A stretch of 64,000 bases of DNA from Trichoplax sp. H2 (GCA_003344405.1 NOWV01000141.1:124001-188000); one strand, 5' to 3'. Positions 1,535 through 37,928 are shown, counted from the stretch's first letter. The notes: generated by a model from the letters alone, not told the origin. Made by a program: numbers and translations.

Positions 1535-4500
1535 ATGGATGATAGCGATCAAGTTCAAGAGCAAGGCTCCGTTTTCTGCTGCTGTTTTACTCTATCCAAT
1601 AAGGTAACTTTGATAAGCACCTTGAAGTATGACTACTGAGCTAGAAGAGAATACTGTAGGATATTTTTCTGCCTTTATTGATTGATTTAATGAATACGCC
1701 ATTGAAATACTCGTATGCTGACCTTTGTGCAGTATGCTATGGCTATAGGATATCATTTCCTTGCAGGCCAGATACTTTATGGATGCCAACAGCAGATTGT
1801 GCCATGATGGCGCTATCGTAATAAAAGAATGAAATTTAATCATGACATGTCGTGATTACCCTTCCATAGGGCAAGCACATTGCTCTGCCTATGGCGCAGT
1901 AGAGTAATCTCTTTGCAGTACAGGCTTAAGTCAATAATTAAATAATTATTTAAGAGTATATAATTAATCGATGTTATTGATATCAGCAAATTCCTCCTTA
2001 AGTACTTTGGCAGATTGCTATCGAAAAGTAATTGACAAGTGTATTATCGTACTTTATGCTATACGAGCAAGTTAATACCTTGGCTAGCAAATGATTCTGT
2101 TTAATTAAACGTGAGATTAAATGATAGAACTTACTGTTGTTTCGTCGAAAAAGAATGATTTTGCTAAAGGCCACCGTTTATTAATTGTCAAAAGAGAGCG
2201 ATTGCAAATTGATATCACGTCAAAATGGGCACTTCCAGAGAGTTCATCAAATATAAGACTTACAACAGTAGGAAAAATTTTGTGATGTAGTACTACTGTA
2301 AATTGTACTAAGATTGCCTGCTGCAATAGGAAGAATTCTCGAATGTTGTCAATAGTTGTTCATTGAATAAGACCTGCTACAGTAGAAAGAATTCTCTTGC
2401 TAGAAGCCGTAATTCTACATTTTACCAAGATAGCAAATTGTAATGCGCTATCTACAGCACGTCGATAAATCGTTCCAAGCTACTGCAGAAAATGATTAAT
2501 CATTCCCCTCTACGCCGCAGCCTTCAAACTCAATACTTTACTTACAGTAGAATAGGTAATGCTTATAATAATGGGTTGCTTTAAATTCATTGGTATATTC
2601 TTTGGGAAAGTGATTTCATAACAATTTTTTGCCATTCTCAGTAGAACATAGCAATGCTCATATTTTATTCTTTTCGATCAATACTGTACTGAGAATGGAC
2701 TACTGTAACTCTGATATTATTAGGTTGTGCATCAAACTTTCTGCCATTAATACTGCATTATCATACAACGTATTCTAAAATTCAATCAATTCTTCTTCTT
2801 AAACTCGTTACAAAATACTACAGCTAAACGATATATTCAGAGACCAGTAAAAGAGAGCACTATTTACTTTGAGCAACACGTATAAGTCGATCTTTTAGAC
2901 TTTCTACTAATTTAGAATGCTTGTAGCTCTTCGTTCAGATAGGATCAAGGAAATGTCCTCCATCAAAGTCTTTGATTTCAGTCATCCGCACAAAATCTAA
3001 CCTTATCTTACTTGAGCCTGATGTTGAAAATCTTGGCATTACTACAGTATTGATAATTAATGTAAACTACTTTCAAGAGATTAGTGATATAATGTAGCTT
3101 AACGTAGATCAAAGTGAGTATCATCAGCGAACATGACTTGAAATGGACTAATAGTTTAGAGATTTGATCATCGATTCCTTAAGCCTGTTCTGTGCACTCG
3201 TAAATTGCATTCTGGTTGGAAGCAGTTTGAGCCCATGAAATTGTTGAATTATACACAATAGCTCACTGAATCTGCCTTATCCTAGTCTTGGATCATTTCA
3301 TTTAATCAGCGTACCTTATCTTAATCTTAGATTTCTAGAAAGAACAGTTGCAGTAGTCATAAAGGTGGAAAAGTTCTTGTGTACAGCCTATTCTGCGTGT
3401 TGTTCAATAGCAATCTGATCAAAAGCAATTTGGGCACGATTTTACTGAATCATAGACAGGGTCTTATTTAATCTACCTTATCCTTCTACAGTATTAACTT
3501 GACGATCAATCCATTTATATTATAGAATCCTGAGCAAATTGGTGAAAGAACCAGACTATTGACTGCTCAACCTGTACCCTCCAATCTTCTTGGACAAAAT
3601 GAAAATAATCAGGAAAAGAATGATCCCGCTACGTTAGAAAATACCTCTCCGGAAAATCCATCTCTATCAACTCATCATAGCAGAACTAGCGATGAATCAG
3701 TCACCACTGCTTCTTCTAGAAGTTCATCTCTATCTCAGATCTCAGATCGTCTAGATGGTCAGATCGAGACTAGAGAAGAAATAAATAACGTTAGCCTGTT
3801 TAAGGTTAGTAAGAATTTCATCTTCAACGAAAAGATGGGAAATACAACGGTCGAGATTTGCCTGCGAGTATTTCCTATCGTATTCTCCTATTATATAGAG
3901 CCAGTGTTTGTCATTCAAAACTGATTACTCGTTATAATTATGCATGATCTCAATTTGATTTGCAAAACTTCTGACCAATTTGACGTGTATCTTGACATAA
4001 TTATTGAGAAAGATATTGAGTCACTGTGCACTAATTTCAAAAACTCTCTTGAAGCAATTAGATTATATAGTATCAACATATTTACCGTACAGCATCATCT
4101 TAGCTACTCAACTCATAAATAACCGAAAGAATAATCTTTATCTTATCATTTTAAATATCACCATGATGGTATTTAAGGGTAATCGGTTAAACTCTCTTTC
4201 CAGTTGATTCTTGACGCCCTTAAATTACCACAAAATGAAGGCTACTTTGGTAAAACTTGTACTGGTATTGAACATCGTAATCGACGTTATGTATTTAAGC
4301 AATGGAATTATCAGGTTGTAAAGAAGTAACTCAGCTGTTGAAATGCAATTCTAATTACTTATAGCCATGTATTCATACCTGAATTATCCAATAGAGTAAT
4401 AAATAGACCATCGACTTAGAGACATTCATTTGGTTTGTAATAACACAAATTTTTACCGTGCTAATTCTTCAGATTGTTCTTAAAGCGAAGCAACCACTTG

Positions 4501-6465
4501 AAGAAGGTGCAAGGATTTTAGCAGGGTAACCTCATTTATAGATAGATTTACTATTGCTATCAGGCATTTCGAATTAAAATTTAAACATTAAAGATGTTCA
4601 TAACTATTTTTCGTGATTGAAGATTAAAACATAGGAATGTAATCAAGGTGCTAGGATTTTATAAAGAACTGAATGGAGTTTTAGAGGAATGGGGTGTTGA
4701 AAGCTTAAGTGATCGAATGATGGAAACGGTAAATAATAGCTTCTTTATATCGTTCCAGTCGTGCAATAAATTTTATCTACTGAAAGCTTTTCTTCATCTA
4801 GCAATCAATATTAATATATTTAGATGATAGTTGAGGCGAAAGACTATTCGCTAGACTTCTATTGGAATTCATTTTTTTATCTGAACTTATATTTAAATTA
4901 TGCTCTACATTGTACATTATAGGACAACAGTAGGGTATTAGAATGCTTTCAACGCCACAAAATACTTTGTGATGTTGTGGAAGGATTATATTATTTACAC
5001 TCAAAATCAGTAGTTCATAACAATTTAACTGGGTAAATATTGAAAAATAGCATAACAGTTACTTGTACCTTACACCGATTAACTCTCTTCGCCTTCTTTT
5101 CTAGCAATAATATAATTATAACTAAGGATGGGACAGCTAAAGTAGCTCATGGTGGCTATTACACAGTCTTTCCTAAAGCAAAGTCCAGTATCAATTTGGA
5201 TAGTTTTAAAAATTTTCGTCATAAACTTGGTTACTACAGTTCTAGGGCATTAGGAGGAATACCTGAAATACCCAATGATATTTTCAGTTTAGGAGCTGTA
5301 AGTCATACAGAATTCTTTAAATTTACTATTTTGGATTGTGTGCTAGAAAAGGTATCGCAAAATGGTACTTGTCAATATGGTGACAAAGGAGAATATGTGT
5401 TGTAACAAATATTGATAGCTGTCAATTTTCGTCTTGAAGGTTATTCTATTACTTGTGACTGGCAAGGAACCATATGGTGAAAACGATGAATACGTATTTG
5501 CTGTAAGTTGCTCTCCAAACCGAACAGATTTACTTCTGTAATCTAGATAGATCGAATATCGTATACTAAGCTTCAGACAACGTTGTCTAGATTATATTGG
5601 TAAATAATTCTTCAAAGCATTCTGGAATTGAAATTGTCAATTAGTTAATGATATTGCTTCATACTTTGCCTTGTTACTCTTTATTCTTACCCTTACGCCT
5701 TTAAATTTCTGTCATTTCACTTGCTAATGAACTGACATAAACTAAATTAATTTTATGGTGCGAAATTATACGATTTAAATATACCTCGCAGTTTACTAAT
5801 AACTCACAGCTGAACCATTGCTCTTTCCATGTGCATACTGTATTGATAATAGCACAGTTGTAAAATTTAGTTTACTTTAGTCAAACCAATGATTATGATT
5901 ACATTCGTATACAGACCAGTAGATTATACTTTAATGCAACGTCATTGAATGATACACTGATTAATTATAATTGATTGTATAGAAATTTTTACTTGAGGAT
6001 ACGTCGAAATGGCATAAATTAAAAGATGAAAGAATAGTATGGGTAAAGAGACGATCTCAGTTTTCTAGTAAGACATTCAGGAAGGCCTTGCTTAAAATTG
6101 CTAAAGATTGCATGAAAGAGAAAACTAACGATAGACCGACCTTAAATAAGGTTTGACATGCTATAGAATTTTAAAATGTACAGTTTTATTATACCCGATT
6201 TAATTCCGCGTAATTGCCATTGCAGTCTTTAATAGCTATTTTGATAATACAAGTATTAGCTCTGCTGATGTTGATTATAAGTATCGTAGGAGCTTTGTTA
6301 TCTTATGACATGCTACTTTGTAACCATCTTGAATAGATTAAAGGCAAGCTAGAGCGCTATAAGACAGCGTATTTTACCTTTGATTATAATATTCCAAATG
6401 AACACATAGAAAGCGGCGAAGATAATAAAGATGAAGAGAGTGATACATCGTCTTGTACTTTTTAA
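1535..6465 (+). CDS. PK1: Pelle/IRAK-like pseudokinase, ~426 aa, N-terminal Cys-Cys-Cys, no death domain
   Basis: Phase-consistent GT-AG exons 1535-1603, 3526-3804, 4204-4314, 4473-4525, 4623-4728, 4923-5032, 5105-5297, 5440-5502, 5983-6150, 6337-6465. Motifs: EGYFGKT, YVFK, LKHRNV, EGLYYLH, VHNNLTGNN (HRD site), KVAHGG (DFG site), DIFSLG, CMKE..DRP. Exon 1 (MDDSDQVQEQGSVFCCCFTLSNK) is supported by homology to PK2 exon 1. Confidence 0.88.
1629..1965 (+). pseudogene. Possible decayed diadenylate cyclase (DAC/DisA_N)-like relic inside PK1 intron 1
   Basis: One frame with ~6 stops reads ...ARYFMDANSRLCHDGAIVIKE*NLIMTCRDYPSIGQAHCSAYGAVE*SLCSTGLSQ*LNNYLRVYN. This echoes the DAC motifs HDGAxxI, GxRHRxAxG and SEE in the correct order, but may be chance. 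Confidence 0.3.
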
Positions 6466-6925
6466 AAATTTAAATGTTATATGAAAATATTGGACCTGAT
6501 ATACTTATACAAAACCTTTCATATGTCCTTGAAAATGGACAACATTGAATTTATAGAATAGATACATAAAGTAAACTCCAAAACAATTGTTTTAAGTAAT
6601 GTTATCTAATAGCTCTATTGGCATCCTTTCAAGTGAAATCTAAACAACAGTATGCTATCCAATTCACGATTCAGTAAATATTTCGTTCTTTGTTCCTTCG
6701 ATTACGCTATTTGTGCCTTCATGGTAAAAAGAAGTCTTTTGATCTTGGCACGATAAATTCTATAAAGTTATACAATGTACACAGCACATTTCCTGGAAAA
6801 CTGCGCTGGCTACAGAATATTTATCTGCGATACATGAAGTAACAATACCGTTGGATAATTTTTTTCATCTTTAGCACCCGCATTGTTAAGGTCTGATTTT
6901 TGATTAGCAGGCATTTGTTGCATAC

Positions 6926-8309
6926 GTATTCATATGTTATAGGTAATGGTAATGTTTCAAGTATGCATTCTTTGCCATAATGCAGGTGCTGATATAAAAT
7001 TATACTATTTAAACAACATCCTGATATTATCCATTTCGTTAATACTTGTAGAAGATTGTAAAAAATGCTACATGTAGCAGAAAGCTGGCTAAATTTTTGG
7101 AGCCTAATATAAAGCCAGCTTTCTATCTCTATGCATATAATTTCAAAAAATCAGAATTTCTACGTATTCTTCCTTATTGATAGCTCCAGAATAGTCCATT
7201 TACGAAGAAATGGTATTGCTATATCAGAAGCTGATCGTTTTGAGTACCGCTTGTATTTTTTAAATGGATAGCGTGTAACTTTGATCTCAAATGTAATATC
7301 TATATTCGCAGTTCTATCTATCTATCCTTTGTTTGCCATTTCTAGGAATAAAAGTTATTATAACAAAAAATTTCATGTATTCATCAGTATGCTGCCTACA
7401 TATTTAACTTTTCTGTTTTAATAATTTTCGAAGTAATACCGGAGCCATAGCAGTGCTGCACAATTTGAGCCTATTAATTACGATCTCCATCATGGATGAC
7501 AATATTACGAAAGGAATTATTAAAAAGGATAGTTAGGACCTAAGTTTAGTCTTCAATCAGGGCATTTTATTTCATTCTGATGATATATTTCTTTAACATC
7601 AAGCGAAATTTCCAGAATATTTCTAGTCTAGCACTGATATTCATTATTCTTTCTGTGTAATTAAATGTGGATATGAATCATTGCAATGCAGTTTTATGTC
7701 TAGTATGAGCTTGATCGAGGCAGAAAGATGATACAACGTAGCTATATGAGTGTAAATAGATCCAGCGAAAGGACCACTGTCAGTTAACTCACCCTCAATT
7801 AGAAGTTATCCTGAAATATTAATTTTTATATTAAATCTATAGAGTATCACAATTATCATAATCATGTTAAAAAAATCACCACACCAGATCAACTTTTCCT
7901 GTGATAAATTTGCATAACCATACACTTATGTCTCCATTCTTGTCATTGCTAGCTTGATTACCTACCTAAGAATCTAATTTTCAATTTAATAACTTTATTC
8001 TGATCCATATGTTCTTTTCAGCAAGATTACCTGTAAAACTATTTACAATAATGATGAGCAAATTATAGCTGAAGGTACTATTGAGTAAGCGATGAAACTC
8101 GCAGTATGCCTCTACTTCACATTTCCGTCCTAAATCGACAACCTTGTGATTTACTAAAGAATTTTATTTACTTTTAAAATAATATATCAACAAAACAGGT
8201 TTTCTATCCATTTCTTATAGGCATTTTGTCAGCCATGATGTCATCTTTAAGATGTAATTCGTTGATGGATTGTCCAGTTACGATAAATCAATGAAGGCCA
8301 AATATTTCA
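6926..8309 (-). pseudogene. Probable multi-exon pseudogene of unknown family
   Basis: AG/GT-bounded segments, several phase-compatible, e.g. *LLIEGELTDSGPFAGSIYTHIAT|KNNEYQC*TRNILEISLDVKEIYHQNEIKCPD*; AQIVQHCYGSGITSKIIKTEK|NGKQRIDR[extra GATA frameshift ~7320]TANIDITFEIKVTRYP..KNT|LQKFSQLSATCSIFYNLLQ|HLHYGKECILETLP. Boundaries approximate. Confidence 0.4.
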
Positions 8310-9149
8310 TATTTATCTTAACTAGATATTCAATAGATAGGATACAAAGTATATGAAATAATGAATCAAATGATTGGGCTATCAAATTCAAATTAAATCG
8401 CTAAAATACGGCAAAATATAAGATCGAACATGTGTATGCCCTCGTAGAAATCGCTGTAAATTGTTACTTGAGGTATCAGTTCGTTTTTTATTCACTAGCA
8501 TCAATAAGAAGATGTCTATATCAAAAATATAATAAGGAAACTACTGATAATTAATTGTCGATTATTAGCAATCCATTTTACATTAAATTTATGTGTAACA
8601 AACTTAATTAGCAACCCATTCCATATTTAATTTATAGGTAAACAGGCTTAATGAATGCATAAATCGAAAATACTACAATGACATTTATTCATAACAATTT
8701 TCGATGATTAGCTATCCATTCCATATTTAATTTATACGCAAACGGGCTCGGTGAGTGCATCGAAGTGGTATAATAATTAAACTGTATTCATAAGCATATA
8801 AACAGAAATTAGTCATTTCAACATCCTATTTTGATTAGATCGAGGCTAAATGTATACAGTACTAATGCTATAACAGACAGTGCTCCCTAGAAATCCTAGT
8901 ATTATTGTCAATATATTTACTCGTATTCTTTCTTTTTCTTCTCTTACATTCATTCTTTACTATTATTTTTACGGCGTAAAATAAGTTTATTTTATCTATA
9001 TCCCATTCTCCAGCCTTTACTTTAATTCCGCCTTTTTCATAGTTTTGTAGCGCCATAGCAAGATTGCCAAAATTGATTAAAAGTAAATCAAATTAATACT
9101 ATTTCATATCAGCAGTCAGCTTACCGGATCAACAGAGAAGTCATAAAAT

Positions 9150-12100
9150 ATGGCTAACAACGATCAAGCTAAGACGCAAAACTCCTTTATCAGGACATGT
9201 TGCTGCTTCTATAATGGAGAGAACAAGGTATGCTGGAACCTATCTGAGATTAGAATAATGAATATAGGTGAAATTGTTGGTTAAGGCTGCTTTAGTAAAT
9301 AGCAGTCAAGATGTTTGTACGTGATGTACCAGTAAAGTACTTTTTTAGCTGTATGCACTGTACGCAGATTACTATAATTAAATCGAGAATATCACAGAAA
9401 AAGCAATTAATTATTCATTGGTGATCCGTAGCTCAAGATGATTACTTTGATGCCAATAAATCGTCTATATGTCGGAATAAATTATATTACAGTAAAAGCA
9501 ATTATTAATTCATGCATCGTAGTAGTAAGTCTACAAAGTTAATAGCGGTGAACGTATATTGTCCATATCTGACAATAAATCGTCTTACAGTAAAAAGTAA
9601 TAATTAATTTTGGTATCGCGATAGTAAGTCTACGAGGTTACTAGAAGTTGGATATGTGATATGACAAAGAATTGAATTGCTCCTTTTATACATTGATAGA
9701 TCAAATGCTTGCACAGCCATAGGCATAACCATTTTAGACGCTGTAATTTATTATTTTTGCTAGTATTCCAACAAAAAATGCTAAATTTCCATGTCCTATT
9801 GGTTAATTAATCGGTTATACTGCTGTAGAAAATCATCATCTGCTTGGAAGCGTATATTCGTATTGTTATCCTACTTATGATAACCCATTCTCTCTACGAA
9901 TGCAAAATCACGGTAGACCGTCCCGGGCTTCTCTAAATGTCTTAATATCATTAGTGGTAGATACCTTGAGAGTTATTTCTACTTTTTGATCTTGAACGTT
10001 AAATATGCCGATAACTTATTTATATATTCTCAGTCACCACTGCCCTTGATTTCCAATACACGTATATAGATATAAAGCCATACCTACAGCTGGATGCTGT
10101 CGGGTAGAAATAGGGCTAAGAGAGAAACTAACAATCCTTAAATAGAACCATTTTGTACTTTACTCTATGTATATTTGTCACGGTACGAATTACCGTGAAG
10201 AAATAGCCATCTAAATTTGGTTAATATAATATAGTGATAATATATTACAACTAGTTACTTACAGTAGGAATTACTCTAATTATAAATGTGTTACAATAAA
10301 TCTAATGCTGTGCTGTAATGTGTACTGATATGATTCTGTGAATGAACATATTGTAGCCTGACTGTGAAAAATTAGTAAGTAGATGTTCTCACCTAAGTAT
10401 TTTTATAAGATGACTCGTGAATGTTAGCTGCTGTAGAAGGGTATATAAGCCCATCAGATAGTTGAAATAAAGCAGTTCTCAATTGTATAGTTGTTTTAAC
10501 GTAGAAGCAAAGGCGTCTAAATTCTTGTGAGGTAGTTAAGGGATACTGAATCCCGGAGACTATAGTAATTTGGAGATTTGTTTTACGTTATCCTTGTCAC
10601 GAAGCTGGTTTGTGAAAATATTATACCTGTATGCAAGGTTGAAAGNNNNNNNNNNNNNNNNNNNNTATAGTGATAATATATTACAACTAGTTACTTACAG
10701 TAGGAATTACTCTAATTATAAATGTGTTACAGTAAATCTAATGCTGTGCTGTAATGTGTACTGAAATGATTCTGTGAATGGACATATTGTAGTCTGACTG
10801 TAAAAAATTAGTTAGTAGATGTTCTCACCTAAGTATTTTAATTGTATAGTTGTTTTAAGGTAGAAGCAAAGGCGTCTAAGTTCTTGTGAGGTAGTTAAGG
10901 GATACTGAATCCCGGAGACTATAGTAATTTGGAGATTTGTTTTACGTTATCCTTGTCACGAAGCTGGTTTGTGACAATATTATACCTGTATGCAAGGTTG
11001 AAAGGTACAAAGCCACAGGAATAGAAAGTGATGGTATAGAATTAACCCTATCACAGTAAAATGAATCATCATGTTGCATGAATAATTCTATAACTTCCTG
11101 TTACATAGAATATACCTAACTACTATTCACTAGTTTACTGAGAATCGCAGCATCTTATGCTCTCTAATTGATCAATCGCGTAATGTTAGAAAATAAAAAT
11201 CTCCTCGATAATAGAAGCAACGCTCTGATACGTATGATGATAACTTGAAATTCGTATTTCTGGTTTGATAAACCATACTATGCAACACATAATAACGATA
11301 TGTATCACAGTAAATTAATTCGAGCAGGTTAGTCTCTTAAGATCTCTTAGGCAGACGATCATATTTATATCATGCTTACAGGATAAATTAGTCAGTTATA
11401 CTGAAGGTTGGGGTAGAAAATTCCACCCTCAGTCAAAATTTCTGCTGCTAAACACTAAAGGTAAATCAGATGAGCACAAAAACCAGCAAAATTAACACTA
11501 TAGTAAGATTGATTGAATAGACCACTGTATAGCCTGATCCACTAAGATGGATTACATCGAATCTATCAGGATATAACAATTCTTTTCAGCTGGGAACTAC
11601 TGTAGTTTTGCCTATTGGATGAAATGGCCAAGGCAATTTGCAACTCATATAACATGTACATGAATTTTTAAGACATATCTTCCATAGCATACTAGGTCTA
11701 TTTTGTCATTTTATTAAAATCAATTAATAGGGAGATAATGGAAACCGCAAAAACTACGACAACGAGGGAAGCTATTATCGAACTGATGTAGACCATGAGA
11801 AATCTCTATATCAAAATAAATGTGTAGTAAAATCCATCACCAACTCTTTCGCTTATTGTTCATGGCCGTCTATAAACGAAGATCCTCTAGTGGATCAAGA
11901 TTCCAGTGAAGGTGCAAGCGACTTTGTTGAGTCTGGTCTTTATCAGGTTAGCATTGATACTATCATCGATGAAATTAAGAATGAAATGTAAAATGTCTTT
12001 AATGTAACTTGTAAATATAATTTACTTGATAAACCCAATCCTTAACCGGCTTGGTTTCTTACGAAATAACTTTATTGAATTTACAGATATAGAATGAACG

Positions 12101-14590
12101 TATAAGCTTGTTTCGATCTTCTACTCTTCTTGTAGGCTGAATTATTCGGCCGAGACTTTGCTTACCTATTACAAGTTATTACTCTTGAAACGGATCATTA
12201 TTTAAATAAATTTTAGCCTGTTTTAGAGCACTTGCAGCGACAATATCTCTTTTAAAATTCGATATCTACGTTGTTCGATAAGCATTGCTTTAACTTTCCC
12301 TATAGGCTATCCGTAAGTCCCTCACGTTGCCACAGCCAGAAGGCTATTTTGGCAAAACCTGTGTTGGAATTAAATATTTAAATCAATGTTTCGTTTTCAA
12401 ACAGTGGCATTATCAGGTTGGTCATGACTAATGCATCTAGTCTAGTACAATTTAAGCATCGTTAACCTAATGCCTAAGCTTAAATAATCCTGATCACTTC
12501 GTATCAATTCATTCTTGTGATTACAAATAATGTATCATCTGAAATCTGACTCAGATCGTAATTAAAGCTAGAAAAAATCTTCGACAAGGAGCAATGCGTT
12601 TATCTAAGTATATCTTTAACTTGATCCAGTTTTTAAATAATCTTTTATAACTGTAAAGATAGTTTTCCATTTTAGATCACCAGCATATTAACACCCGTTG
12701 GTTATCTCTGTTAAAGATTAGAGCATAGAAATGTTATCAGGGTACTACAATTCTATCTAGAATTCAACGGAGTTGTAGAGGAATCTGGAGCTGAAAGTTT
12801 AAGTGATCGTATGATTGATATGGTAAAGACTAATTTCAAATTTAATGCGAGCCCCATCATGACAGTTAATTAAAAGAAAATCAATCCATTACCATCTATT
12901 CTAGTATATAGCACTTTAAGGACCATTTTAGGACAGATTATATACACACCTGTTGATGAGGATTGGATTAAGTTTCATTGGAACTTTGTTCTTAAGCTAT
13001 GCTCTACCCATTCCATTGCAGAATCCAAACAGATTATTAGGGTGCTACCAACGTCATGTAATCCTTTCCAATGTGGTTGAAGGATTATCCTACCTACATT
13101 CGAAAGAAATCGTTCATAACAACCTAACAGGGTAAATTTCATTAAAGCCAATCATCGAATAAATGACCGTTATAGAGACTTATATTCTCAATTATGAATT
13201 GATTATAGGAAAAATATAATTCTCACCAGTGATGGCACCGCTAAAATAACTCATGGTGGCTATTATACGGTCTTTCCAGAAGCAATATCTAATATCAAAG
13301 TAGATGGATTTAAAAATTCTCAGAACAAACTAGGTTATTACAGTTCCAACGCATACAATGGAATAGTTGAAAAATCCAATGACATATTCAGTCTAGGGGC
13401 GGTAAGTCCTTCATTCTTCTTTCTATTCAATACTTCTTCAATTTTTATCCTACATATGTTGTTACTGCAAGCGATTGCCATTAAAATAGGCTAATGTGAA
13501 TCGTATTGGTAGCCAGTCTTGATAACATTTGAATACTTTAATTTTGGAAGGTAATCTTTCTGCTGTTATGTGGGAAAGAGCCATATTTGTGTACTGAAAA
13601 CGGAAAAGATGTTGATGCGGTAGGTTACTCTCCAAGCTAAAATGGATTCCTTATAACTGCTTTAAAAAAAATTTGTTCCTACCATTCCTAGTTACTTTAG
13701 ATTCAATCTATTGAATACCTATCGATCATAATATGATTTTCATATAGAAATTTCCTCAACTATGTCACAGTCTACAAATCAACTTACAATAACTACTTTA
13801 AATGTTTTCAAGTCAAGGATATTTAACTATATCTTAAGAATCTGGATCTGTCATCTTGTTTCTTAAAATGTACAGCTAAAATAGATATCAAGCGCTTGTA
13901 GATCTATTAGTGAATTCGCGATAGCATTCTAAAATTAGTTCGTCTAGTCAGCGATTATTTCATATAAAATATTACCTTTCAATTATGATCTATCGCTAGA
14001 CTGCGATAGTTTATTTTAGCGTAAGCCATAAATTGTCGATATGTTAGCATGCAATAACAGGCCATAAATACTCGCCTTTTAATTTAGCATCTGTATGAAA
14101 AAATTATTCCCTTTTGACATGTTATGAATTCTCGTTGATCATCATAGAGATCAATACTTCAAGACAAGAAAAAGCGAAAAACTCTAAAAGATAAACGGAT
14201 CAAATGGGCGAAAAATCCCCAACTTTCTACTACTACATATAGAAAATGTTTAGTATCAATCGCTAAAAATTGTATGAAGGAAAAATTAAGCGAAAGACTA
14301 AGTATTTATCAGGTAAAGATATACAAACTATCAGTAAATTTCAGTTTTTAGTTGATTGAAAGCATTCATGTCTGCTATGGTGATGGATATACATCTTGAT
14401 GATATCCGTCGCTACCTTGTCGATTTTAGTCAAGAGTAGCGCTAGAAATATTCAACCTTATGTTGTAACCTTTGATGACCTTCAATAGATCAAGAAAACA
14501 CTGCGAAGCTGTTTGGATATTTATTTCAGCGGTACTGATGATATGCTAACTACAGGATATGTATCAGTGAACGATTGTGATGATGAATAA
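9150..14590 (+). CDS. PK2: Pelle/IRAK-like pseudokinase, ~400 aa, close paralog of PK1
   Basis: Exons 9150-9227 (MANNDQAKTQNSFIRTCCCFYNGENK), 11731-11946, 12306-12416, 12555-12607, 12717-12822, 13022-13131, 13209-13401, 13551-13619, 14148-14312, 14489-14590. Five kinase exons have the same lengths as in PK1 (111/53/106/110/193). Motifs EGYFGKT, FVFK, VHNNLTGKN, KITHGGYY, DIFSLG. Confidence 0.88.
10176..10976 (+). mobile_element. Solo-LTR-like element (~440 bp) in PK2 intron 1, represented twice across an assembly gap
   Basis: TGTCAC...GTGACA termini, TATATAA ~10442 then AATAAA 10466, flanking 5-bp direct repeat ATATT (10171-10175 / 10977-10981). Second copy, inverted, at 58515-58955. Confidence 0.75.
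10646..10665. other. Assembly gap (20 N) with duplicated overlap on either side
   Basis: 10666-11003 repeats ~10231-10645, including the unique flank atattatacctgtatgcaaggttgaaag, with SNPs and a ~75-bp deletion. Confidence 0.9.
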
Positions 14591-15614
14591 TCCCTTTCCT
14601 GTCGTTCATGAAAGATTCGGAAAATAAAAATGATCATACGAGTAAACTGTTAGCTAGAAGGTATAGCCATTCTTTAATCGTTATCTATAGAATATGTACA
14701 CTTTAAATCTTAATGGTTGGGAATTGACGCATTCTTGCTTAAATGATTCAGTAGTTTGCATATTACATTAATATGACATACGAAGGTCCATAAAGGTATA
14801 CCTGCATGCAAAGGATCATAGCGTTCTAATAGTTTTACAAGAATTGGCAATATAAAACACAGTTACTTGTTCACATGATTAAGCATAACCTTAATTTATA
14901 TATAGTACAAAATATGCACAATTACAGCTGCTTTGTATAGTTTATTTGCCATTTATAACAATAAAGCCAGTTTATAATTAATTATAATCATAGATTTTAA
15001 TTAACAATATCCGATTCGCCCTGCTGATATATTTTTTAGCTTGATTAATCAGGTGCAATTTCAGTTTATAGTTTCTTGACTTTTAGAGATATTGGACTAA
15101 ACCAGACTGAATACAAATATTCATACACGATATCCTTAATTAATTATACAAATATTTTCAAATATTTAAGGACTCAGAATAAGTAGATAAACATTATACC
15201 AGCGTAAATACAAATAAATATGTATAGAGAGGTTCAGATTATGTGAATTAATTCATATTATGAAAAAAGGTAAATCGTGAAATAAATCGATCGGAATTTT
15301 AAGACAGAATTGCATTATTTCTTAACTAAGGTTATGAATCACATGAAATTTAATGGACTCTATCATTTACAATCTATTTGCTATATGGAAGCAGAGTTCA
15401 GTCAATGATAAGTAAAGTATTACAAGATTATTGACACAATTTCGATTGGTGAAATTTTAGTAAACTAATAAATTAATTTTCAACGAAATAATGATTGTTA
15501 ATAAGGACACGATGCTAAGTTTTGAACAGCATCTACCGTAACAGATTGACAACTACTTCAAGTTCCCGTCATAATTTTATCGTTTAGGTTTTATTTCCTA
15601 TTTAAATCCTAGTA

Positions 15615-22830: not shown

Positions 22831-24404
22831 GACATTACATTACTTTGCTACTTTTCAAGGCCAATTACAAATTTTCTCATTTCGACAATAAATACAGTAT
22901 TGCTGATACTATATTTAATAATATAATTCTTACACTAATAAATTATCTGCCATAATCTGATAATATTGCAGACAATATAACCCTATTTTCCATTTAATTC
23001 TCATTTCTAATCGACATAATTATCATGAACTCGTATTTAGACTTTAGACAGAAAACTACCAACACTTATTTTTACAAATCTCCATCTCATTTTTATTCTA
23101 GAGAGTGATAGTTTCCCAGGTAAGAAATCAAAGATACTATTTTTGCGGAGTAGATTTACTTGATACAGGGCATAAAAATATCACTATCCTGACTGCCATA
23201 ATAGATACATCAAGATCCAGTTATTGCAGCTTAGCTGGGAAGGACAAAGGATAGCAATCAGATTTAGAGCAAAGCAGGAGATCAAAGATACTATTTTGTG
23301 AAGTAGATTCCTTTATCCTCATCAATTTCTAATGATGATCGATAATACTAACGATATCGAAGCATACTTATGGCATGATTTTCTCCAGTGCACAGATAAG
23401 TCCTTAGTGATGGTGATTTATTTATGGTTAACACCTGTATAGAATGACGAAAGCTATTCAATTCTTAGCTTTTAAGAAAAGGATTAAAGATTGGATAGCT
23501 AGGTATGTCTCCATTTTCTCAACCGTGTGGATAAAAACTTCATAACGGCAATTGAATCAAAGTTCATAAAATTTGTATAGAATGACGACAACTATTCAAA
23601 GCTTAACTTTTTGCAAAAGGATTAGGCAATCGGTAGCGAAAACGATCATATATTGTAGTGAATCTAATACAGGCAGAAGTAAAAGAAAATCATTTGTATA
23701 GCTCGTTTCTAATAGTCTCCTTAATTTTCAATTAAGCGAGAAAGGCTTACCGGTAGTAATTCTTAGTAGTCGTGGCTATATTTTCGAATTAAAGGAATTT
23801 GCTGAACATGACCGATGAGTAGGGTTGTTATGATCTGACTGCTTTTAGAGACGATAACAAGTTTGGCATCGTTGAAAGCAATTTCTATTCTTGACTGATA
23901 TTACGGCTCAGATGTAACTAATTTTTATTCAACGCAAGGACTGACTATTTATTGCCACTTTCCATAAAGATATGCGAAATTAAAACGTCTTGAAATAAGA
24001 GAATATTCGCTACTTTCCAAATAGACTGTTTAACTGGGATGTATGTCTGCTGTCATGATGAATGATACAGTAAAAGTATTACATAGAAGCAGGTACCTAA
24101 GGTTTTTAAGACTTGCTTTCGAACAAAGATGCTCTGGAAATGTAGATACCACTGCAGGTGTCAAAATTCTTTTAGTTATAGTATTAAGCCATAATAAAAA
24201 TTGTTGTACAGTACACGAGGATGTGTCTTAATCTTAATACTGTAGAAGCAGCCTATATGCTAGTAACCGGGGTGCTAGAGTTAAGTAAATAATAATAATA
24301 TTAAGATTTGTTTAAGTAGAGGAACTGGGCTGCAATCGTTAAATTCAAGTCCTTCGTCACTAATGCAATTGTAATCTCTCTGATTTATACATCGTTGTAT
24401 CCTT

Positions 24405-25025
24405 CTAAGAGAAAATCGGGAATAACAGGGATAGTGGATTGACTAATACTCATTCTTCGCTTGGTCAAGAAATGGTATGGAATGTTCTGTCGATCCATAT
24501 CCAATAGTTAAAAATTTGAAAGTGCTAATTTGTTGCATTTAGTTTATTCATCGATGTTAGAATCATAAGCTAGTCTTTTAATCCTGATTTCAAGATCTTG
24601 ACGTTCTTTGAAGCGAAAATCAGGAACAACAGGGATAATGGATTGATAACTGCTCATTCTTTGCTTGATCAAGAAATTGTAGGTATGCTCTATCGATCTG
24701 TGTCCAAAGTTCTTCGTAGAGGAAATCAAGAATAACTGGGAAAATGGGTTGATCATTGCTCATTCTTCGCTTTGTCAAGAATGCTATAGAGAATGCGATC
24801 TCGATCTATGCCCAATGGTTGAAGATGCTAATTTGATGCATTCAATTCTTTCGTCGATATTAGAATCGTAATCGAGTCTTTTAACCTATCCAACTTCAAG
24901 ATCTCTAGGACCTTCCAAGAGAAAATCGGGAATAACGGGGATAGTAGATTGATAAATACCCATTTTTCGCTTGGTCTGGAAATCTTAGGCTAAGCTATGT
25001 CGATCTATGTCTAATAGTTGAAGGT
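24405..25025. repeat. Degenerate tandem repeat, ~205-bp full unit plus a ~105-bp partial unit
   Basis: gaaaatc.ggaa.aac.gggata.tggattga..ctcattctt.gcttg.tcaagaa at ~24411, 24615, 24722, 24921. Confidence 0.85.
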
Positions 25026-25409
25026 GTTAATATCCAACGCTCGATATGATTCATTCGAAAGCTGAAAGCATTTCTCGGTATGCTGCTGATTTCTGGCTAT
25101 CAAAATCATGACAAGACGAGAATTAGGGTTTCAATTCCCTGGAGAGAATTAATTTTCGCCACAACAAACCAAGGTCCACTACCAACTATGTCCTATACTA
25201 TAATTCAGTCTGGAGATTGATATTAATGCCTGGCAGAACCAATTCCATTAATGGAGTATTCGTAGTAGACCACAAGTAATCAAGAAGGGTAAATAAGTAT
25301 CACTGAAGCAGTAGTATAAAATCTTTCAGTAAAGGATGTGATTTAATCGCTTATTAAATAATAAGCAACAAGGGTAGAATATCCAAACAAACAGATGACT
25401 AGTATATAG

Positions 25410-26600
25410 GATGTTATCATCGAGCTGTAGTTATAGCTATTAATTGGAAAATTATACCGGTAAATAATTTTTTCCTCTAGTAATATATTGTGAATCCTAT
25501 AAATTACATTTATGCCTTACTATACACGTCTTTTTTAATAGGTACTATTAGACCGGATGCTGTATATTGTATGATTACTACCGGATCAGCTATCTGTAAA
25601 TTAATAAACGATATTTACGGCAGTTTTTATATCTAGTACCAATTATCATCTCTGTCATGGTGTACTTTAGTCGATTATTGAAGTAAAATAATATAGACAG
25701 AGTATTAAGCAAAGTTATATTATGACGATAGATGAAATGATCTGGAGATCAATTAGATAAATCTTCTCTTGAGTCTACGAAGCTTCTAATGCTTTATGTA
25801 AAGCCAGGGGTTCCGTTACTATTTTTGAACACTAGCATATAGCTGCTATTAGAAAAATTACACCTGTATGCACTTTTTCCTCCAGTAATATGTTGTAGAT
25901 CTTATCAATTAAATTTATGCTTTTATTATTTAAACATTTTTTAAAAGTACCTTTAGACCTATTGCCATATCTTGTATTAGTACTACTGGATCAGCCTGTA
26001 AATTAATAAATGACATTTACGGCAGTTTTTGTATATATTTAGGACCAATTGTCATGCGGTAATGGTGTGAATTAGTCGGTTATTAAAAATTAAACAATAC
26101 AGGCAGGGTATTAAACAAAATTATTTCATGGTGATAGGTGATAATTATTTAGATAGCTATTAGATAAATCTTCTTTCGAGTTTATGAAGCATTTAATTCT
26201 TCATGTAAAGCTAAGGATTTTGTAACTCTTCATAGACAGCAGCCTATAGCTATTATTACTAAATCATATCGGTTATGTTTTGTTTTCTCTACTAATTTTG
26301 TATGGATCTTCCAATCCTATTTATGCGTATATACGCCTTTTTTGTTTATGTATCTTATGAAAGTAACAATACACCTGTTGATTGTTGCTATATCTTGTAT
26401 AAGTAGTACTACTACTGGATCAACTACTTGTAAATTAATGAACGACATTTATGGCAGTTTTTATATGTAATTAGGATCAATTATTATCTCAGTAATGGTG
26501 TAAATTAGTCGGTTATTAAAGTAAAGCAAGATATTAAAAACAAAATTACGAGGACTGCTATCTATGACTGTAGCTAGAAACGATTATTTGGCAACCATAA
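25410..26600. repeat. Degenerate tandem triplication, ~405-430-bp unit
   Basis: tgtaaattaat.aa.gac/gatattta.ggcagttttt at ~25595, 25997, 26430; ttagataaatcttct at ~25753, 26160. Confidence 0.88.
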
Positions 26601-29600: not shown

Positions 29601-29986
29601 ATAGTTGCTAGTCTTTTTTTAATTTTTTATCTTCACGTATTTTAAAGTTTATTCTTTATCGATCGATATTAGACTTTTGCGATGATCATTACTGTATATC
29701 ATTCCTGATGTACGATATGACAGTATTAAAAAATTACTAACAGCGGGACATTTTCTAAATGTTTCTTATATATTTTCAATTAGATGAGATTGCTAACTGA
29801 GCCAATGCTGAAGTAGTCTGCGTCTGTTATAGAAATCTTTTACGACAAATAATTTTTAAAAATTATTTACTTCACTGATACAGCTTGTACTCTTTTGTTA
29901 CTTTAAAGATTATCTGTCGCTCTATCTATCAGATGTACTTATCTAGTCACAATCAAGTCAAGAATTTTTTTTTTGATTGAAATAGG

Positions 29987-32900
29987 ATGGTGGAGAAATT
30001 ATTATACCGCTTATCTGAATTCGCTAATAATTTTACATGTTGCGGGGTATTAAGTTATAGCAATATAGAACTAATAGCAGTTGAAAATTGATATCCTATT
30101 ATCAATCTCACTTGTTGTAATTCTGCTTATATACTGTAGCTAAATACGATAACTCAATCTTATGTTATTGTACAGTGTTACCTAAGTTACGTTGCTTCAA
30201 ATCGTACGATCCTATTAGGTACTAAGTAAGCCTGAAAAAAGGCGAGAGAGTCAAGCAGAAGAAGTAATGTTGCTTCGTCCAAGAAGTGCAAGTAGAAGTT
30301 CTAGTGTTGATACGTTGAATGAAATAGATGATTATCCACCGCAGACGGTAACCTAATTAAAAATCATTTATTTTTTGCGGTTAAAATAAGATTAGCGATT
30401 CATTTGTTTGTTATCATAGAACATTCGCTAAAAAGGATTCATATTCTATTTCGATTATCACTCTACGTAGGAAATTACTCTAGTTTATAATAAAGTAGGC
30501 AAGAAACAATGTGACGGCCATTATAGCCAAAATTTGATCATACGCTACGATGGGAAAGCCTTTGTTTATAAAGTGTGGAATTTTCGTGTACGTATAACAT
30601 ATGATATTTAGCTGAATCTCAGGCTGTTTTAGGAGTAACCAAAAGACGTAATAAGTTCTTGCTCCTGATATTCATTATATTTCAATATGACTATCTAATA
30701 TTTTTATGCGGCGAATGTTTAATACTAATAAATTGAGATTAATATCATGCTAATGAAATTAAAGAATGCAGAAAAACTGAGATAAATATTGCTTTTACAG
30801 CTAGATGATTGCAAAGAGACGAGAACAGCCGTTAGGAAGCTGATTAGGTAATAAATTATCCGTCGCTATAAGTTATGGCTTTTGTTTTATTGCAGCTGCT
30901 GTTTTTATCTGAATATACAGGCTAAAACATGATAATATTTTAAAATCCTATCGGTACTATCGCTATCCTGGAGGCGTATTGGAGTGTTATTTCGAACATA
31001 CTTTAAGAGATCATATTAAGGCTCAGGTATGTCATAATAATAATAGTGCCATAAAGTGCCAATTTTAATACTCTGTAGTAATTGCCATTTCCTTCATCTT
31101 GACTTTAGCAATCAAAAAAAATCTTCCTAAATTCACAACAACGCTATCAAGTTCTTACCGATATATTAAATGGCTTGGAATATTTACATGATCATGGTAT
31201 TGTTCATGAAAACTTAACCACGTAGGTGTAGGATTGATTTAAATCTGTCATAATTCGTTGTAGAAGTCCATATGATAAGAAGTCGAAGTTTTTGTTTTAA
31301 GGTGGTTTGAAATCAAAATTATCGCTAAATAATTCATTCCCATCTAGACCAAATTAGCTAATCGTATACCTTTAGATATGTTGCATGACTGCAAAATATT
31401 TTATAACGATAAAATCATAATTGCATTAGGTACTATAAATCCGCCTTGCTCTATCTGTATAAATTACTCAAATTCCATTTTATTCTATCTTAATTGTTTG
31501 TAGAAAGAATATTTTGATTACGAACACTGGAGAAGCCAAATTAAGCGATTTTGGATATGTTAGCTTATTTCAAACGAAGTTAGCACTATCCAAGAAAGCA
31601 TTATATCACCATCATAAAATTGCTTATATGTGCCAGGATGCTCTAAATGGCCACGTTGGCAAGAAAAATGATATTTATAGCTTTGCAATTGTATGTTTTT
31701 GATTTTTGCAATTGTTACTGTATAGTCATTTCAATTATTTTAGCTTAGAATTATAAGAAACACTTTATTAAAATTAAAAATTTAATATTAAAAGTTTAGC
31801 GTTAAATTGATTAATAGGTTGCCACCGAAGTTATATCAGGAAAGCAAGCTTACGATGCCTTTAGGATCCCCCAATATCTGGTATGTAAGAGATTATACTT
31901 AAATCATACAGCCGATAATCATAATTGTATGATGTACCGAACGAGACAGTTCTACAGAATTTCTTTAACTGCTTTAGTAGATAGTTGAGTTTAAAACGTA
32001 AAGTAAAAATAATAATTAATATAAAATATGGCAAATATGATTAATATCAGTACTAATAATGGCTCAATATCAGTAATGTTGGCAGTGCAACATTAATATT
32101 GTTTATAATTTATGGACTGAGAAAACAGTCAGTTCAAAGGAGATAAAATTATTTCGTTCACTAAGAATTTTATGTAGTGCCACTCTAGAAAATATTATAA
32201 TTCATTTAAATAAGGATGAATCTTAAATCTAGCTAAAAAAAACTATGTAAAATATTAATTTTGAATTAAATCTAGCCTTAGCTAGCTATCTAGTTTTCAT
32301 TTTTTTATCGATCACATGACGAAATTTATAAACAGCAAACTAATTATGTTCACTGTTAGCTTGTTCAACTTGACTGAATTTTTATTGAGTAATCAAGTTA
32401 CCCAAGTTTGGAATGATTACAATGTTAACATTCATCAATATTAAATAATCTGGAGTTTACAAAATATTTATATCTTAACTTAATAGCGTGATTGGCTAGC
32501 TAACGAAAAATACTGGAAACATCTGAACGATAAACGTCTTGGCTCACGTCATCAGGAGAAAAAGTTGTTTTCCACTTCTATTTCTGGCAAAACTTTTCGG
32601 GTTGAATTGCTAGAAATTTGTAATAAATGTTGCAGTGAACATGCTACGAATAGGCCTTCGCTGGTGGAAGTAAGATACCGAATTCATATTTAATTAATCG
32701 ATTAATCTTAATTCTCTCTATTTAGTGAAAAGTGTTGACTTACCTATGCTATCTATACATATATTCTATAATACCGTACACTGTAAATGACGCAATGATT
32801 AGAAATGATAATAATGATAAATACTTTGCTTTGTAGAAAAGAAAATTTAGCTAACTTCACTCACTTGCATCCTTTCAAAATGCAATGCCTTATTAGTTAA

Positions 32901-33168
32901 TAGTATTTAGAATCATACTATATTTTAGGTATTTGTGAGAACTTCATCTAAGTTGAAACACACTCTTAAATCTAGCTTCCAATGTGAGATCAATAGGGCG
33001 ACGAAAATTATAGAGGTATTAAGTTTAATAATTTATCATTTGTAATAGGTTAAGACCGGTTTTGCTTTACTCAAGATGAAGTATACCAAAGGCAAGCAAC
33101 CTTTGGTACTTTATGAGAAATGGGAAGGGATGAGAACTAAACTAAATCACGTCCTAGGACGACAATGA
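29987..33168 (+). CDS. PK4: Pelle/IRAK-like pseudokinase, ~370 aa, N-terminal Cys-Cys
   Basis: Exons 29987-30046 (MVEKLLYRLSEFANNFTCCG), 30231-30347, 30471-30587 (CDGHYSQ; FVYK), 30801-30847, 30921-31026 (LKHDNI), 31109-31221 (GLEYLH..VHENLTT), 31504-31690 (KNILI..KLSDFG..DIYSFA), 31818-31880, 32487-32669 (CC..NRP), 33049-33168. The first two exons are less certain. Confidence 0.85.
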
Positions 33169-35654: not shown

Positions 35655-37928
35655 TTAGACATCTGTAGTATACAGTGCAAGATCTGGTGATTCTCCTGGT
35701 GTCATCGGACTCGTTTGTCCTGCTGATTTAGTGTCATTCGTTGATGCTTTATCTTGAACTTTGGCGGAATTTTTATTTATAGCATTTTTCTCTTTAATAG
35801 ATTTAGCATCATCCGTAGGTGATTTATCTTGTACTTTCGTGGAGATTTGATCATCTATGAAAAAAATCTTTAATTGGCTCTTTTCAGGAGGTTTAGCATC
35901 TATATTTATATTTTTTGCTGTAACAGGCGCCGAAGCCGGCCGGCGTTGTTTTTTGCTTGATGGTTTCGTAGGTCTAATATTAACTGTATCATCTTTTAGA
36001 ACGATAACCTTCTTTAAGTTTTTATTTTCGTCCTGTTGTGTAAAGGATGTAGTGGAAGAATCTTTACTCAATTTATCAACATCCAAGTGCTTGATGAAAA
36101 CCTCTAAATCTTCACGTATCTATTGAGATTAAATAATATCATGAAAAGGCTGTTACTTAAAAAATTTGGCATAGGTACTTATAAGCGATGGCTATATTAC
36201 TATACCTCATCGATGTAAGGTCTATTACTTTTGATATGTAAACATTTTTCTGCAATTTCCAATAATCCTGATACACATTTGGCTGGCCATTTAATCTTCT
36301 TATCCGATGGAAATGGAAGTTTTCTTTCTTTCTTTTGAAAGTAAATATCACTCTACAATTTGTTAACGTTCAATTCGAAAGTAAAATTTGATGCAGTAGA
36401 TCTGATAATGTTAAAAGGATTGAATAGGCTACATAATAGCTAATTTACCAGCATATGAGGTGATCTCTTGGTTGAATATGGCAGAAGAATTGATATAATT
36501 TCCAGTACCAGCTAAGTGCATAATAAAAGGACACAGCAATCATTATGTTAGTAAGTTTAATTTTAGTACAGTATAGTGGTGATATTATCTTAACTCTAGT
36601 ACAATTGAAACATAGTAAACAATTGATGGTAAGTAATACTTACAACACCAAATCCGTAGACATCATACTTTCTGGAAACTACTCCATATTTGGCTTCAGG
36701 TGGCATATAACCATGAGTACCACAAGCTTTGAAGGCAGTAGCACAAATCGACTCTCTTTCTATGACTTGAACTGATCGTGCTAATCCAAAATCAGATATT
36801 TTCGCCTTACGATTTTTATCGAGAAGGACATTTCCACTAGGATAGCAATTTTATGTGTTTAGTAATGAAATTTGGGGGAATATTTAATTTATATAGCCTA
36901 CAACATAAAATATTACGATCTATATCATGAAAATTTTGGTACCTGCTGATATCTCGATGAACTAATGCCTTTGAAAACGCAGTATGCAAATATTCTAAAC
37001 CTTTAGCGGTACCTAATATTATATCTATTCTTTGTGTAGCAGTAAGAATCTCGTCGGCCTCCTATAGTTAATATTTGAAGTTACTGAGATAGACTGCTAT
37101 TGAAAGAGCTTAACTTTATGATTCTCGTACCGTAGCTTCCAACGAATTTCTCAAGGGACCCAATGCTGCAAATTCTAAGACCAGGCAAACGTTTTTCCGA
37201 TTATAGCCATATAATCGAATTAAGTTTTCATGTTGGAATCTACGTAAATCGTATTCAAGGGTGTTTAATTTTATCAAGACGAATAGTCTAGTAGAGTAGC
37301 CGTGACAGTCTGCAATGAAGGCAATCATCTTACCGTACGAGGGAAGACAGTTCTTTCTTAATGACTGCAGCAAACTATAAAAAATAGCAATATGAGAATA
37401 AATAAATTTAATTCATTAAGCAAATAATACAACATCGGCATTCTAATAACGTTAGTTTTGCAATATTAGCCATATTCGTAATTATCCTATGGAGGTATCT
37501 GTAGCAGACAATTTCTAAGGTGTATTGTGATAAAGGAGCTAACAGGACAGATTGATTTCAAACAAGCTGGCACTAGAATCAGGGACTATTGCTGGAATGA
37601 TGTCGGTTATTAAACATTTGTGCATGCAAGATGAATACTTACTTCAGGTTTTAAGAATTTAATGGCTACGATTGTGTCTTTCAATTTTCCACGATATACT
37701 ATTCCAAAAGAGCCTTTACCAAGGAAGTTAGCCTCACTACGATTGTTTGTAGCCATCTCAATATCCTAGGGGATTCAAAGATACTTGATTACTTGTCATA
37801 TTGGCAACGATAACAAAACTTTACATAAGGTCTTATTGATTTTCTCCATATGATTCCAGCAAATACCTTACCACCAGAATTAATACTTACTTCGTCACAG
37901 ACTTGTAAATCTTTATCTAGGCTACCTT
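35655..37928 (-). CDS. K5: catalytically intact Pelle/IRAK-like Ser/Thr kinase with a long low-complexity C-tail (5' end unresolved)
   Basis: Minus-strand exons 37891-37928, 37643-37765 ([24 protein letters not shown]), 37334-37374 (KKELSSL), 37131-37239 ([12 protein letters not shown]), 36943-37061 ([17 protein letters not shown]), 36644-36836 ([30 protein letters not shown]), 36449-36511, 36206-36352, 35655-36119. ATNN and GTxGYMPPE are typical of Pelle/IRAK/RLK kinases. Confidence 0.9.

Follow-up and report, generated by a model that had tools for sequence, protein, structure and literature searches.

A placozoan tandem cluster of IRAK/Pelle-type kinase genes comprising one catalytically complete kinase and four constrained predicted pseudokinases

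The closest described counterparts of the genes considered here, apart from the cluster itself, are found in vertebrates and in plants. In the vertebrate IRAK family, IRAK4 and IRAK1 are active kinases and IRAK2 and IRAK3 are pseudokinases. The plant receptor-like cytoplasmic kinases (RLCKs) include the acylated RLCK-VII members and the clustered ZED1/ZRK pseudokinases of RLCK-XII. In the 64,000-nucleotide stretch of Trichoplax sp. H2 DNA analyzed in this study (GCA_003344405.1 NOWV01000141.1:124001-188000, referred to as the window), five intron-rich kinase genes, designated PK1, PK2, PK3, PK4, and K5, are all located within 37 kb. A tight genomic cluster of IRAK-related, death-domain-less placozoan paralogs, read as placozoan-specific tandem paralogues, has already been reported (Kamm et al., 2019; BMC Genomics, PMC6321704), and with the same organism, IRAK-like kinases, and no death domain, it is very probably the present locus. 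According to the main text of the same report, the IRAK-like kinases of placozoans and cnidarians are devoid of the death domain that association with MyD88 requires, and Toll/IL-1-type signalling in these animals is thus an open point.

The reading that we favor, at a probability of roughly 60%, is that the locus is a placozoan tandem cluster of death-domain-less kinases of the IRAK/Pelle/receptor-like kinase (RLK) type, in which the complete kinase K5 is accompanied by four old pseudokinases that are transcribed, spliced, and constrained. The identity of the genes, the states of their catalytic motifs, their splicing, the expression of PK1–PK3, and their selective constraint are established. 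As the cluster is in print and all five genes carry annotations, the finding extends known biology and overturns none of it. The main text of Kamm et al. (2019) contains no occurrence of the words pseudokinase, inactive, catalytic, myristoyl, or palmitoyl; beyond that text, the present analysis adds the 4:1 split between dead and active members, two pseudokinase architectures, selection estimates, and a corrected start of PK3, the genes themselves being possibly listed in its supplements. No paper naming any of the five TRIADDRAFT identifiers or RDD39272 was found, the titles and abstract openings listed for Trichoplax and pseudokinase included none about these genes, and the only relevant paper found for Trichoplax and IRAK was that of Kamm et al. 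(2019).

Alignment of the five kinase domains confirmed every motif state that a preliminary description of the window had given for them. K5 (TRIADDRAFT_56774 / RDD39272; 457 aa, minus strand, 35655–38110) retains the glycine loop GKGSFG (37703–37720), VAIK (37655–37669), the αC Glu (within 37348–37362), HRD (36945–36962), DFG (36785–36796), and PPE (36695–36706). In both PK1 (TRIADDRAFT_56778 / RDD39270; 426 aa, plus strand, 1535–6465) and PK2 (TRIADDRAFT_56777 / RDD39269; 400 aa, plus strand, 9150–14590), HNN replaces HRD (5013–5030 and 13112–13129, respectively) and HGG replaces DFG (5145–5156 and 13249–13260). PK3 (TRIADDRAFT_56776 / RDD39268; 317 aa after the revision described below, minus strand, 15615–20799) carries VAIR (19081–19095), HLL (17279–17296), and DYG (17225–17236), and its αC column is devoid of Glu, though a Glu is found four residues upstream. 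PK4 (TRIADDRAFT_56775 / RDD39273; 374 aa, plus strand, 29987–33168) combines HEN (31202–31219) and a degenerate glycine loop (30498–30518) with a retained β3 Lys and DFG (31544–31555). An addition to the earlier observations is that the αC column is occupied by Gly, Gly, and Ala instead of Glu in PK1, PK2, and PK4, respectively. When a pseudokinase is recognized from its sequence by the loss of at least one of the β3 Lys, the catalytic-loop Asp, and the DFG Asp, two losses are counted in PK1 and PK2 (catalytic-loop Asp → Asn and DFG Asp → His), two in PK3 (β3 Lys → Arg and catalytic-loop Asp → Leu), one in PK4 (catalytic-loop Asp → Asn), and none in K5. On this sequence criterion, four of the five cluster genes are pseudokinases, and K5 alone is catalytically complete in the window.

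The public protein models of all five genes (TRIADDRAFT_56774–56778 in Trichoplax adhaerens; RDD39268, 39269, 39270, 39272, and 39273 in Trichoplax sp. H2) were threaded on the window, which is AT-rich (G+C 27–40%). Threading gave two mismatches in PK3, three in K5, and none in PK1, PK2, and PK4; these mismatches disappeared when the Trichoplax sp. H2 versions were used, and the window translations of all five genes showed no residue difference from the H2 proteins. Differences from the H1 proteins amounted to three residues in K5, two in PK3, two in the shared parts of PK4, none in PK1, and seven in PK2, and a K5 exon was 98% identical to TRIADDRAFT_56774. The threaded introns are bounded by GT/GC..AG and separate ten exons each in PK1, PK2, PK4, and K5 and seven in the public PK3 model. 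The exons lie at 1535–1603, 3526–3804, 4204–4314, 4473–4525, 4623–4728, 4923–5032, 5105–5297, 5440–5502, 5983–6150, and 6337–6465 in PK1; at 9150–9227, 11731–11946, 12306–12416, 12555–12607, 12717–12822, 13022–13131, 13209–13401, 13551–13619, 14148–14312, and 14489–14590 in PK2, whose source record RDD39269 bears the name "Protein LYK5"; and at 29987–30046, 30219–30347, 30471–30587, 30801–30847, 30921–31026, 31109–31221, 31504–31690, 31818–31880, 32487–32669, and 33049–33168 in PK4. Those of K5, in the order of transcription, lie at 38090–38110, 37867–37959, 37643–37765, 37334–37374, 37131–37239, 36943–37061, 36644–36836, 36449–36511, 36206–36352, and 35655–36119, so that the gene extends to 38110 and not, as had been stated, to 37928; its C-terminal tail of roughly 150 aa is of low complexity. 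A scan of six-frame open reading frame (ORF) pieces with a hidden Markov model profile built from the five cluster proteins and two IRAK4 sequences placed kinase pieces at exactly these five loci, the remaining matches having E > 0.9. The H2 record RDD39271, the number of which falls among those of the cluster genes, could not be positioned in the window.

The paralogs share six kinase-domain introns, at alignment column/phase 264/2, 303–305/0, 343/2, 408/0, 435–437/0, and 501/0, and the exon lengths are nearly identical across genes; the DFG-to-APE exon, for instance, measures 193/193/187/193 nt. The common intron positions bear out the paralogy of PK1–PK4 with K5. The accompanying statement that all five genes have the same intron positions and phases holds for these introns with the exception of PK3, which is without the 343/2 intron and has a fused 306-nt exon there.

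In the Pfam search (E ≤ 0.1), only kinase-type families were matched in the five proteins (Pkinase at 1.7e-22 in PK1 and 3e-40 in K5), and no death domain was found in any of them. The parts preceding the kinase domain are short, about 30–117 residues, and those of PK1 and PK2 are 24% identical. The best matches among solved structures were IRAK4 or plant receptor kinases for all five proteins: the top match of K5 was IRAK4 (7e-39), after which came LysM receptor kinases, CERK1, SymRK, FERONIA, IRAK1, BAK1, and PBL2; PK1 matched IRAK4 at 4e-17 and next B-Raf at 2e-11; PK3 matched CERK1 at 3e-23, IRAK4 at 4e-19, and LIMK1 at 1e-13; and for PK4 a lectin receptor kinase (7e-19) ranked first, before IRAK4 (1e-16) and, at little distance, GCN2 (7e-16). 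The margin over the best match outside the IRAK/Pelle/RLK family was thus about 15 orders of magnitude for K5, about 10 for PK3, about 6 for PK1, and less than 3 for PK4. The kinase domains fit the IRAK/Pelle/RLK branch of the TKL group, PK4 by way of its grouping with PK1 and PK2 and the shared introns. The label Pelle/IRAK-like that had been given to the genes accordingly describes their kinase domains well, as judged from the structure matches, and does not extend to the death domain, which defines animal IRAK/Pelle proteins.

A maximum-likelihood tree of 22 kinase domains (5 placozoan, 7 IRAK4, and 10 plant; no outgroup) was constructed after two of 12 plant rows with truncated matched domains were left out. 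PK1 and PK2 were joined with a support of 99/97, and PK1, PK2, and PK4 with 100/100; the branches of PK3, PK4, and K5 were long. The phylogeny with IRAK and plant kinases proposed in the preliminary description thus firmly united PK1, PK2, and PK4, and the branch holding all five placozoan proteins was weaker, as described below. The ten plant sequences grouped apart (92/97) with all five placozoan proteins excluded. An AlphaFold2 (AF2) model of PK1, the input alignment of which included seven IRAK4 sequences and hence biases the model toward IRAK4, was nearest to IRAK4 among solved folds (TM by target 0.71–0.80). Its mean predicted local distance difference test score (pLDDT) was 65.7; residues 110–399 mostly scored 74–97, with dips to about 50–70 in the activation segment (residues 261–290) and near residues 321–330, and residues 1–109 and 400–426 scored below 50 and were predicted to be disordered, no secondary structure being present in 1–109.

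The cluster hence resembles the vertebrate IRAK family in that its kinase domains are closest to IRAK4 by sequence (K5 and PK1, with IRAK4 among the best matches of PK3 and PK4) and by the predicted fold of PK1, and in that active and dead paralogues occur together. Unlike the vertebrate proteins, the placozoan ones have no death domain and therefore no Myddosome-type assembly; their genes are arrayed in tandem, and the pseudokinases have arisen independently within placozoans. A Tyr gatekeeper is a hallmark of animal IRAK/Pelle kinases, whereas the corresponding column, Tyr in IRAK4, is occupied by Leu in K5, PK4, and PK1, by Thr in PK3, and by Val in PK2. With the plant RLCKs, the locus shares a kinase-only RLK/Pelle-type makeup, a pseudokinase-rich tandem cluster, N-termini that are short and bear candidate acylation motifs, and strong matches to the structures of CERK1, BRI1, BAK1, BIK1, and PBL2. 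Since the plant sequences form a group of their own, this resemblance is parallel and not orthologous, and descent from plant RLCK lineages is not indicated. The locus extends the recurring expansion of pseudokinases in the IRAK/Pelle/RLK family to an early-branching animal and does not represent a new kind of system.

To characterize transcription, four runs (X1, X5, X6, and X11) were aligned to positions 1–20000 of the window. X5 and X6 originate from separate studies, X11 is a declared RNA library, and X1 was treated as DNA because none of the intron joints occurred in it and 28 of 30 bins had a depth of 77–124. The spliced alignment that had been suggested as a check supported PK1 fully, PK3 mostly, and PK2 partly. 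All nine coding introns of PK1 were present as GT..AG joints, within one contig each in X5 and X6, and none in X1. The intron of the 5' untranslated region, which leads from 212, the end of a non-coding exon, to 1505, the beginning of the first coding exon, was joined in X5, X6, and X11, and X11 additionally joined the first coding intron. Coverage by X11 was nil over 4003–6670 and PK2, which carries no weight as evidence of absence. With its 5' non-coding sequence at 164–212 and 1505–1534, PK1 possesses two or more non-coding 5' exons, the loose end at 164 showing that the transcript runs on into sequence outside positions 1–20000, and the 1.3 kb skipped by the 212→1505 joint contains tandem repeats (period 182 at 1–338, with units to about 1450). 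The H2 model RDD39270 (444 aa) contains an 18-residue insert through an alternative donor (5298–5351); this form was rejected, as the joint 5297→5440 in X5 and X6 fits the 426-aa T. adhaerens form. In the case of PK2, the last pieces of X5 record 17 and X6 record 21 begin at 14487, the predicted last acceptor, and 900 and 192 earlier letters, respectively, lie elsewhere; the joint itself is not among the joints listed. As regards the expression of PK4 and K5, word shares were 0.23–0.31 in three RNA runs and 0.41–0.45 in six probable RNA runs, a signal not assignable to either gene.

The PK3 joints 15668→16044 and 19190→19273 were present in X5, X6, and X11. Of the loose ends, that at 19305 corresponded to 20760–20789 and that at 17798 to 17374–17389, and the 246 letters between the two pieces of X6 record 23 equal 165 + 81 nt, the lengths of the two intervening exons. 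The annotated ATG at 19224 sits in an intron and is removed by the joint 19190→19273. The RNA-supported model instead gains a 30-nt exon (19274–19303) and a first coding exon at 20758–20799 with the start at 20799, followed by exons at 19069–19191, 18040–18077, 17798–17912, 17084–17389, 16876–16956, 16044–16208, and 15615–15668, nine in total. Its frame of 317 residues is open, all eight introns are GT..AG, and a stop codon precedes the new ATG by two codons. The public PK3 model hence has a wrong 5' end, and the RNA-supported N-terminus, newly recognized herein, begins with Met-Gly-Asn-Ala-Cys.

The common possession of HNN and HGG by PK1 and PK2 indicates that their catalytic residues were lost before their duplication, and their later divergence thus occurred while dead. 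Over 394 codons, dN and dS (nonsynonymous and synonymous divergence) between the two were 0.40 and 1.51, giving a dN/dS of 0.27 (bootstrap 0.15–0.39). In the kinase domain (272 codons; 61% identity), where synonymous sites are near saturation, the ratio was 0.13 (bootstrap 0–0.22), far from the value near 1 that had been named as contrary to the proposal. As every other pair had a saturated NG86 dS (about 2 or undefined), only the PK1/PK2 ratio was interpreted. Alignment of the introns of the two genes was no better than that of shuffled sequence. When neutral evolution of the PK1 frame was simulated, a single frame of 2000 was still intact at 0.1 substitutions per site and none of 2000 at 0.25 or more. 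Furthermore, X1 differed from the window by 21 substitutions in the PK1 stretch 3310–6506, 3 of them among 1212 coding bases vs. 18 among 1985 non-coding bases (Fisher p = 0.024); two of the coding differences are synonymous and one is Ile408Val in the C-tail. Purifying selection on PK1–PK4 with maintenance of the kinase fold is supported by these sequence comparisons.

The pseudokinases fall into two types as classified from their sequences. PK1, PK2, and PK4 open with a mini-exon of 60–78 nt encoding Cys-Cys(-Cys) flanked by hydrophobic residues, followed by a disordered Ser-rich linker and, in the kinase domain, the catalytic-loop Asp → Asn change, to which PK1 and PK2 add HGG. The cluster is Phe-Cys-Cys-Cys-Phe in PK1 (residues 14–18; 1574–1588, plus strand), a candidate S-palmitoylation site with which Cys-Cys of PK2 (9195–9209, plus strand) and PK4 (30032–30046, plus strand) are aligned. 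The PK3 type is characterized by the β3 Lys → Arg change, HLL in place of HRD, and the N-terminal Met-Gly-Asn-Ala-Cys (20785–20799, minus strand), a candidate for N-myristoylation at Gly2 and palmitoylation at Cys5. From general knowledge of protein acylation, we take these motifs to be candidate palmitoylation or myristoylation-plus-palmitoylation signals. K5 begins with Met-Ala-Asp and has its first Cys at residue 28, residues 1–27 containing none. Acylation-type N-terminal motifs, noted here for the first time, are therefore borne by all four pseudokinases and not by K5.

These features suggest a mechanism in which the pseudokinases would work without phosphotransfer, as docking partners, allosteric partners, or phospho-acceptor substrates, and we regard such a mode of action as probable. 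N-terminal acylation would hold PK1–PK4 at membranes, and K5, having no such motif, would be soluble; the odds on this arrangement, as read from the motifs, appear even. That the catalytic partner of the pseudokinases is K5 itself is a tentative suggestion and rather unlikely. A complex prediction for the kinase domains of PK3 and K5, run without controls, gave a score of 0.00 and a mark of 0.34 and is accorded no weight either way. More speculative still is the idea that the lipid-anchored IRAK-type pseudokinases take over the recruiting job of the Myddosome by bringing or allosterically switching soluble K5. If true, PK1–PK4 would parallel plant RLCK signalling in an animal, having arisen independently, and could supply the missing link from TIR-domain receptors to downstream NF-κB/MAPK signalling in placozoans. 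With four of five clustered IRAK-like genes being conserved predicted pseudokinases with candidate membrane anchors, the proposed wiring is testable.

Several observations weigh against the favored reading. The inactivity of PK1–PK4 and their acylation are both judged solely from motifs, and paralogy and adjacency are the only ties of these proteins to K5. The β3 Lys and DFG persist in PK4, as do the glycine loop and DYG in PK3, which makes nucleotide binding or weak activity conceivable. Between PK1 and PK2, no measurable constraint was found in the N-terminal linker (dN/dS 0.68; bootstrap 0.03–1.23) or in the 27 codons of the C-tail (dN/dS 2.5). PK2 has a low RNA depth (0–7.3 across bins) and the most residue differences between H1 and H2, 7 of 400 vs. 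0–3 in the other genes. In the tree without an outgroup, the five placozoan proteins lie on one side of a branch supported at only 74/81. Finally, exon searches turned up no relative from outside Trichoplax for PK1, PK3, or PK4, an absence that is weak evidence because the exons were short and word or length filters were applied. For the PK1 exon, 2 of 42 candidates matched, namely PK1 and PK2 themselves; for PK3, 1 of 138 candidates reached E ≤ 1e-8; and the PK4 exon, searched against 1.84 billion representatives, gave eight matches at E ≤ 0.001, of which PK4 alone also passed E ≤ 1e-10. A metagenome scan with the PK1/PK2 alignment yielded 304 pattern matches and one confirmed stretch, 38% identical over 69 residues, on an unrelated contig (L001). 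Among the exon searches run, K5 alone yielded a probable orthologue fragment elsewhere. This protein (P0002; 150 aa), encoded on a short assembly contig, shares 80% identity with the DFG-to-APE exon of K5 (36620–36829) and reads on past it into intron-like sequence. It is probably, as its sequence suggests, a K5 orthologue from another placozoan lineage, in which case K5 is conserved beyond H1/H2.

Among the alternatives, the one that survives best goes further than the cluster itself and holds, as the preliminary description did, that PK1–PK4 exist to regulate, or to be decoys for, their active neighbor K5. The common descent of the genes and their adjacency within 37 kb agree with such a module, as does the position of K5 as the sole catalytically complete member in the window, and membrane-anchor motifs confined to the pseudokinases fit the recruitment of a soluble kinase. 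Tandem arrays, however, reflect duplication and not partnership, and the main text of Kamm et al. (2019; PMC6321704) describes several IRAK-related kinases and assigns "many," not all, of them to the cluster, which leaves room for further active paralogues outside it. We consider the module possible yet doubtful. A lower likelihood is assigned to the view that some of PK1–PK4 are unconventional but active kinases. Some kinases with the catalytic-loop Asp → Asn change keep weak activity, and retained residues are found in PK4 (β3 Lys, catalytic-loop Asn, and DFG) and PK3 (glycine loop, catalytic-loop Asn, and DYG); the catalytic-loop Asp is nevertheless missing in each of the four, the metal-binding Asp in PK1 and PK2, the β3 Lys in PK3, and the αC-column Glu in all four, which renders activity improbable.

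Slightly less probable again is that PK1–PK4 are guarded decoys of the plant ZED1/PBS1/PBL2 type, which would mimic targets of microbial effectors under the watch of NLR or Apaf-1-like sensors. In favor of this, the plant RLCKs are kin to the family, the Tyr/Ser-rich activation segment of PK1 and PK2 is well conserved despite catalytic death, and placozoans host bacteria inside their cells and have many genes of the NB-ARC/Apaf-1-like kind (Kamm et al., 2019; PMC6321704, main text). On the other hand, no effector is at hand, the window contains no NB-ARC or guard gene (the identified neighbors being a CDT1-like gene and a 7tm_1 receptor gene), and the kinase-domain dN/dS of 0.13 gives no sign of diversifying selection. 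The notion that the pseudokinases are decaying or neutrally drifting duplicates still open by chance could draw on the low RNA depth and seven H1/H2 residue changes of PK2 and on the fast-evolving tails, but has hardly any likelihood left and is rejected in the form of decayed pseudogenes, given the spliced transcripts, the purifying selection at near-saturated synonymous sites in the kinase domain, the simulated loss of all frames at 0.25 or more substitutions per site, and the open frames and canonical splice sites in all four genes, which uphold the initial description of PK1–PK4 as splicing into open frames.

Outside the kinase genes, diverged internal repeat blocks are located between the PK3 start and PK4 (21500–22800 and 24300–26600); they contain no long ORF, and two pieces tested gave no Pfam match. 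Just past the kinase cluster, two ORF pieces at 45134–45893 (plus strand; Pfam CDT1 at 4e-10 and 3e-7) represent a gene similar to the DNA replication factor Cdt1. Between K5 and this gene, tandem repeats at 40319–40945 and 42261–42310 (periods 199–240 and 41, with a 24-nt C-rich unit) are situated in the part of the window richest in G+C (39–40%). A single-exon ORF of 361 aa at 53088–54173 (plus strand) encodes a G-protein-coupled receptor of the rhodopsin family (7tm_1, 4e-24). Intron 1 of PK2 contains a high-copy repeat (10006–11339) in which two tandem copies flank an N gap (10646–10665). A further copy lies on the opposite strand at 58435–59059, and the translated pieces are 80–100% identical. 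The summed contig depth of this repeat was 44,000–55,000 in the DNA-like run X1 vs. about 100 elsewhere, and it was high in the RNA runs too; the repeat is probably a mobile element.

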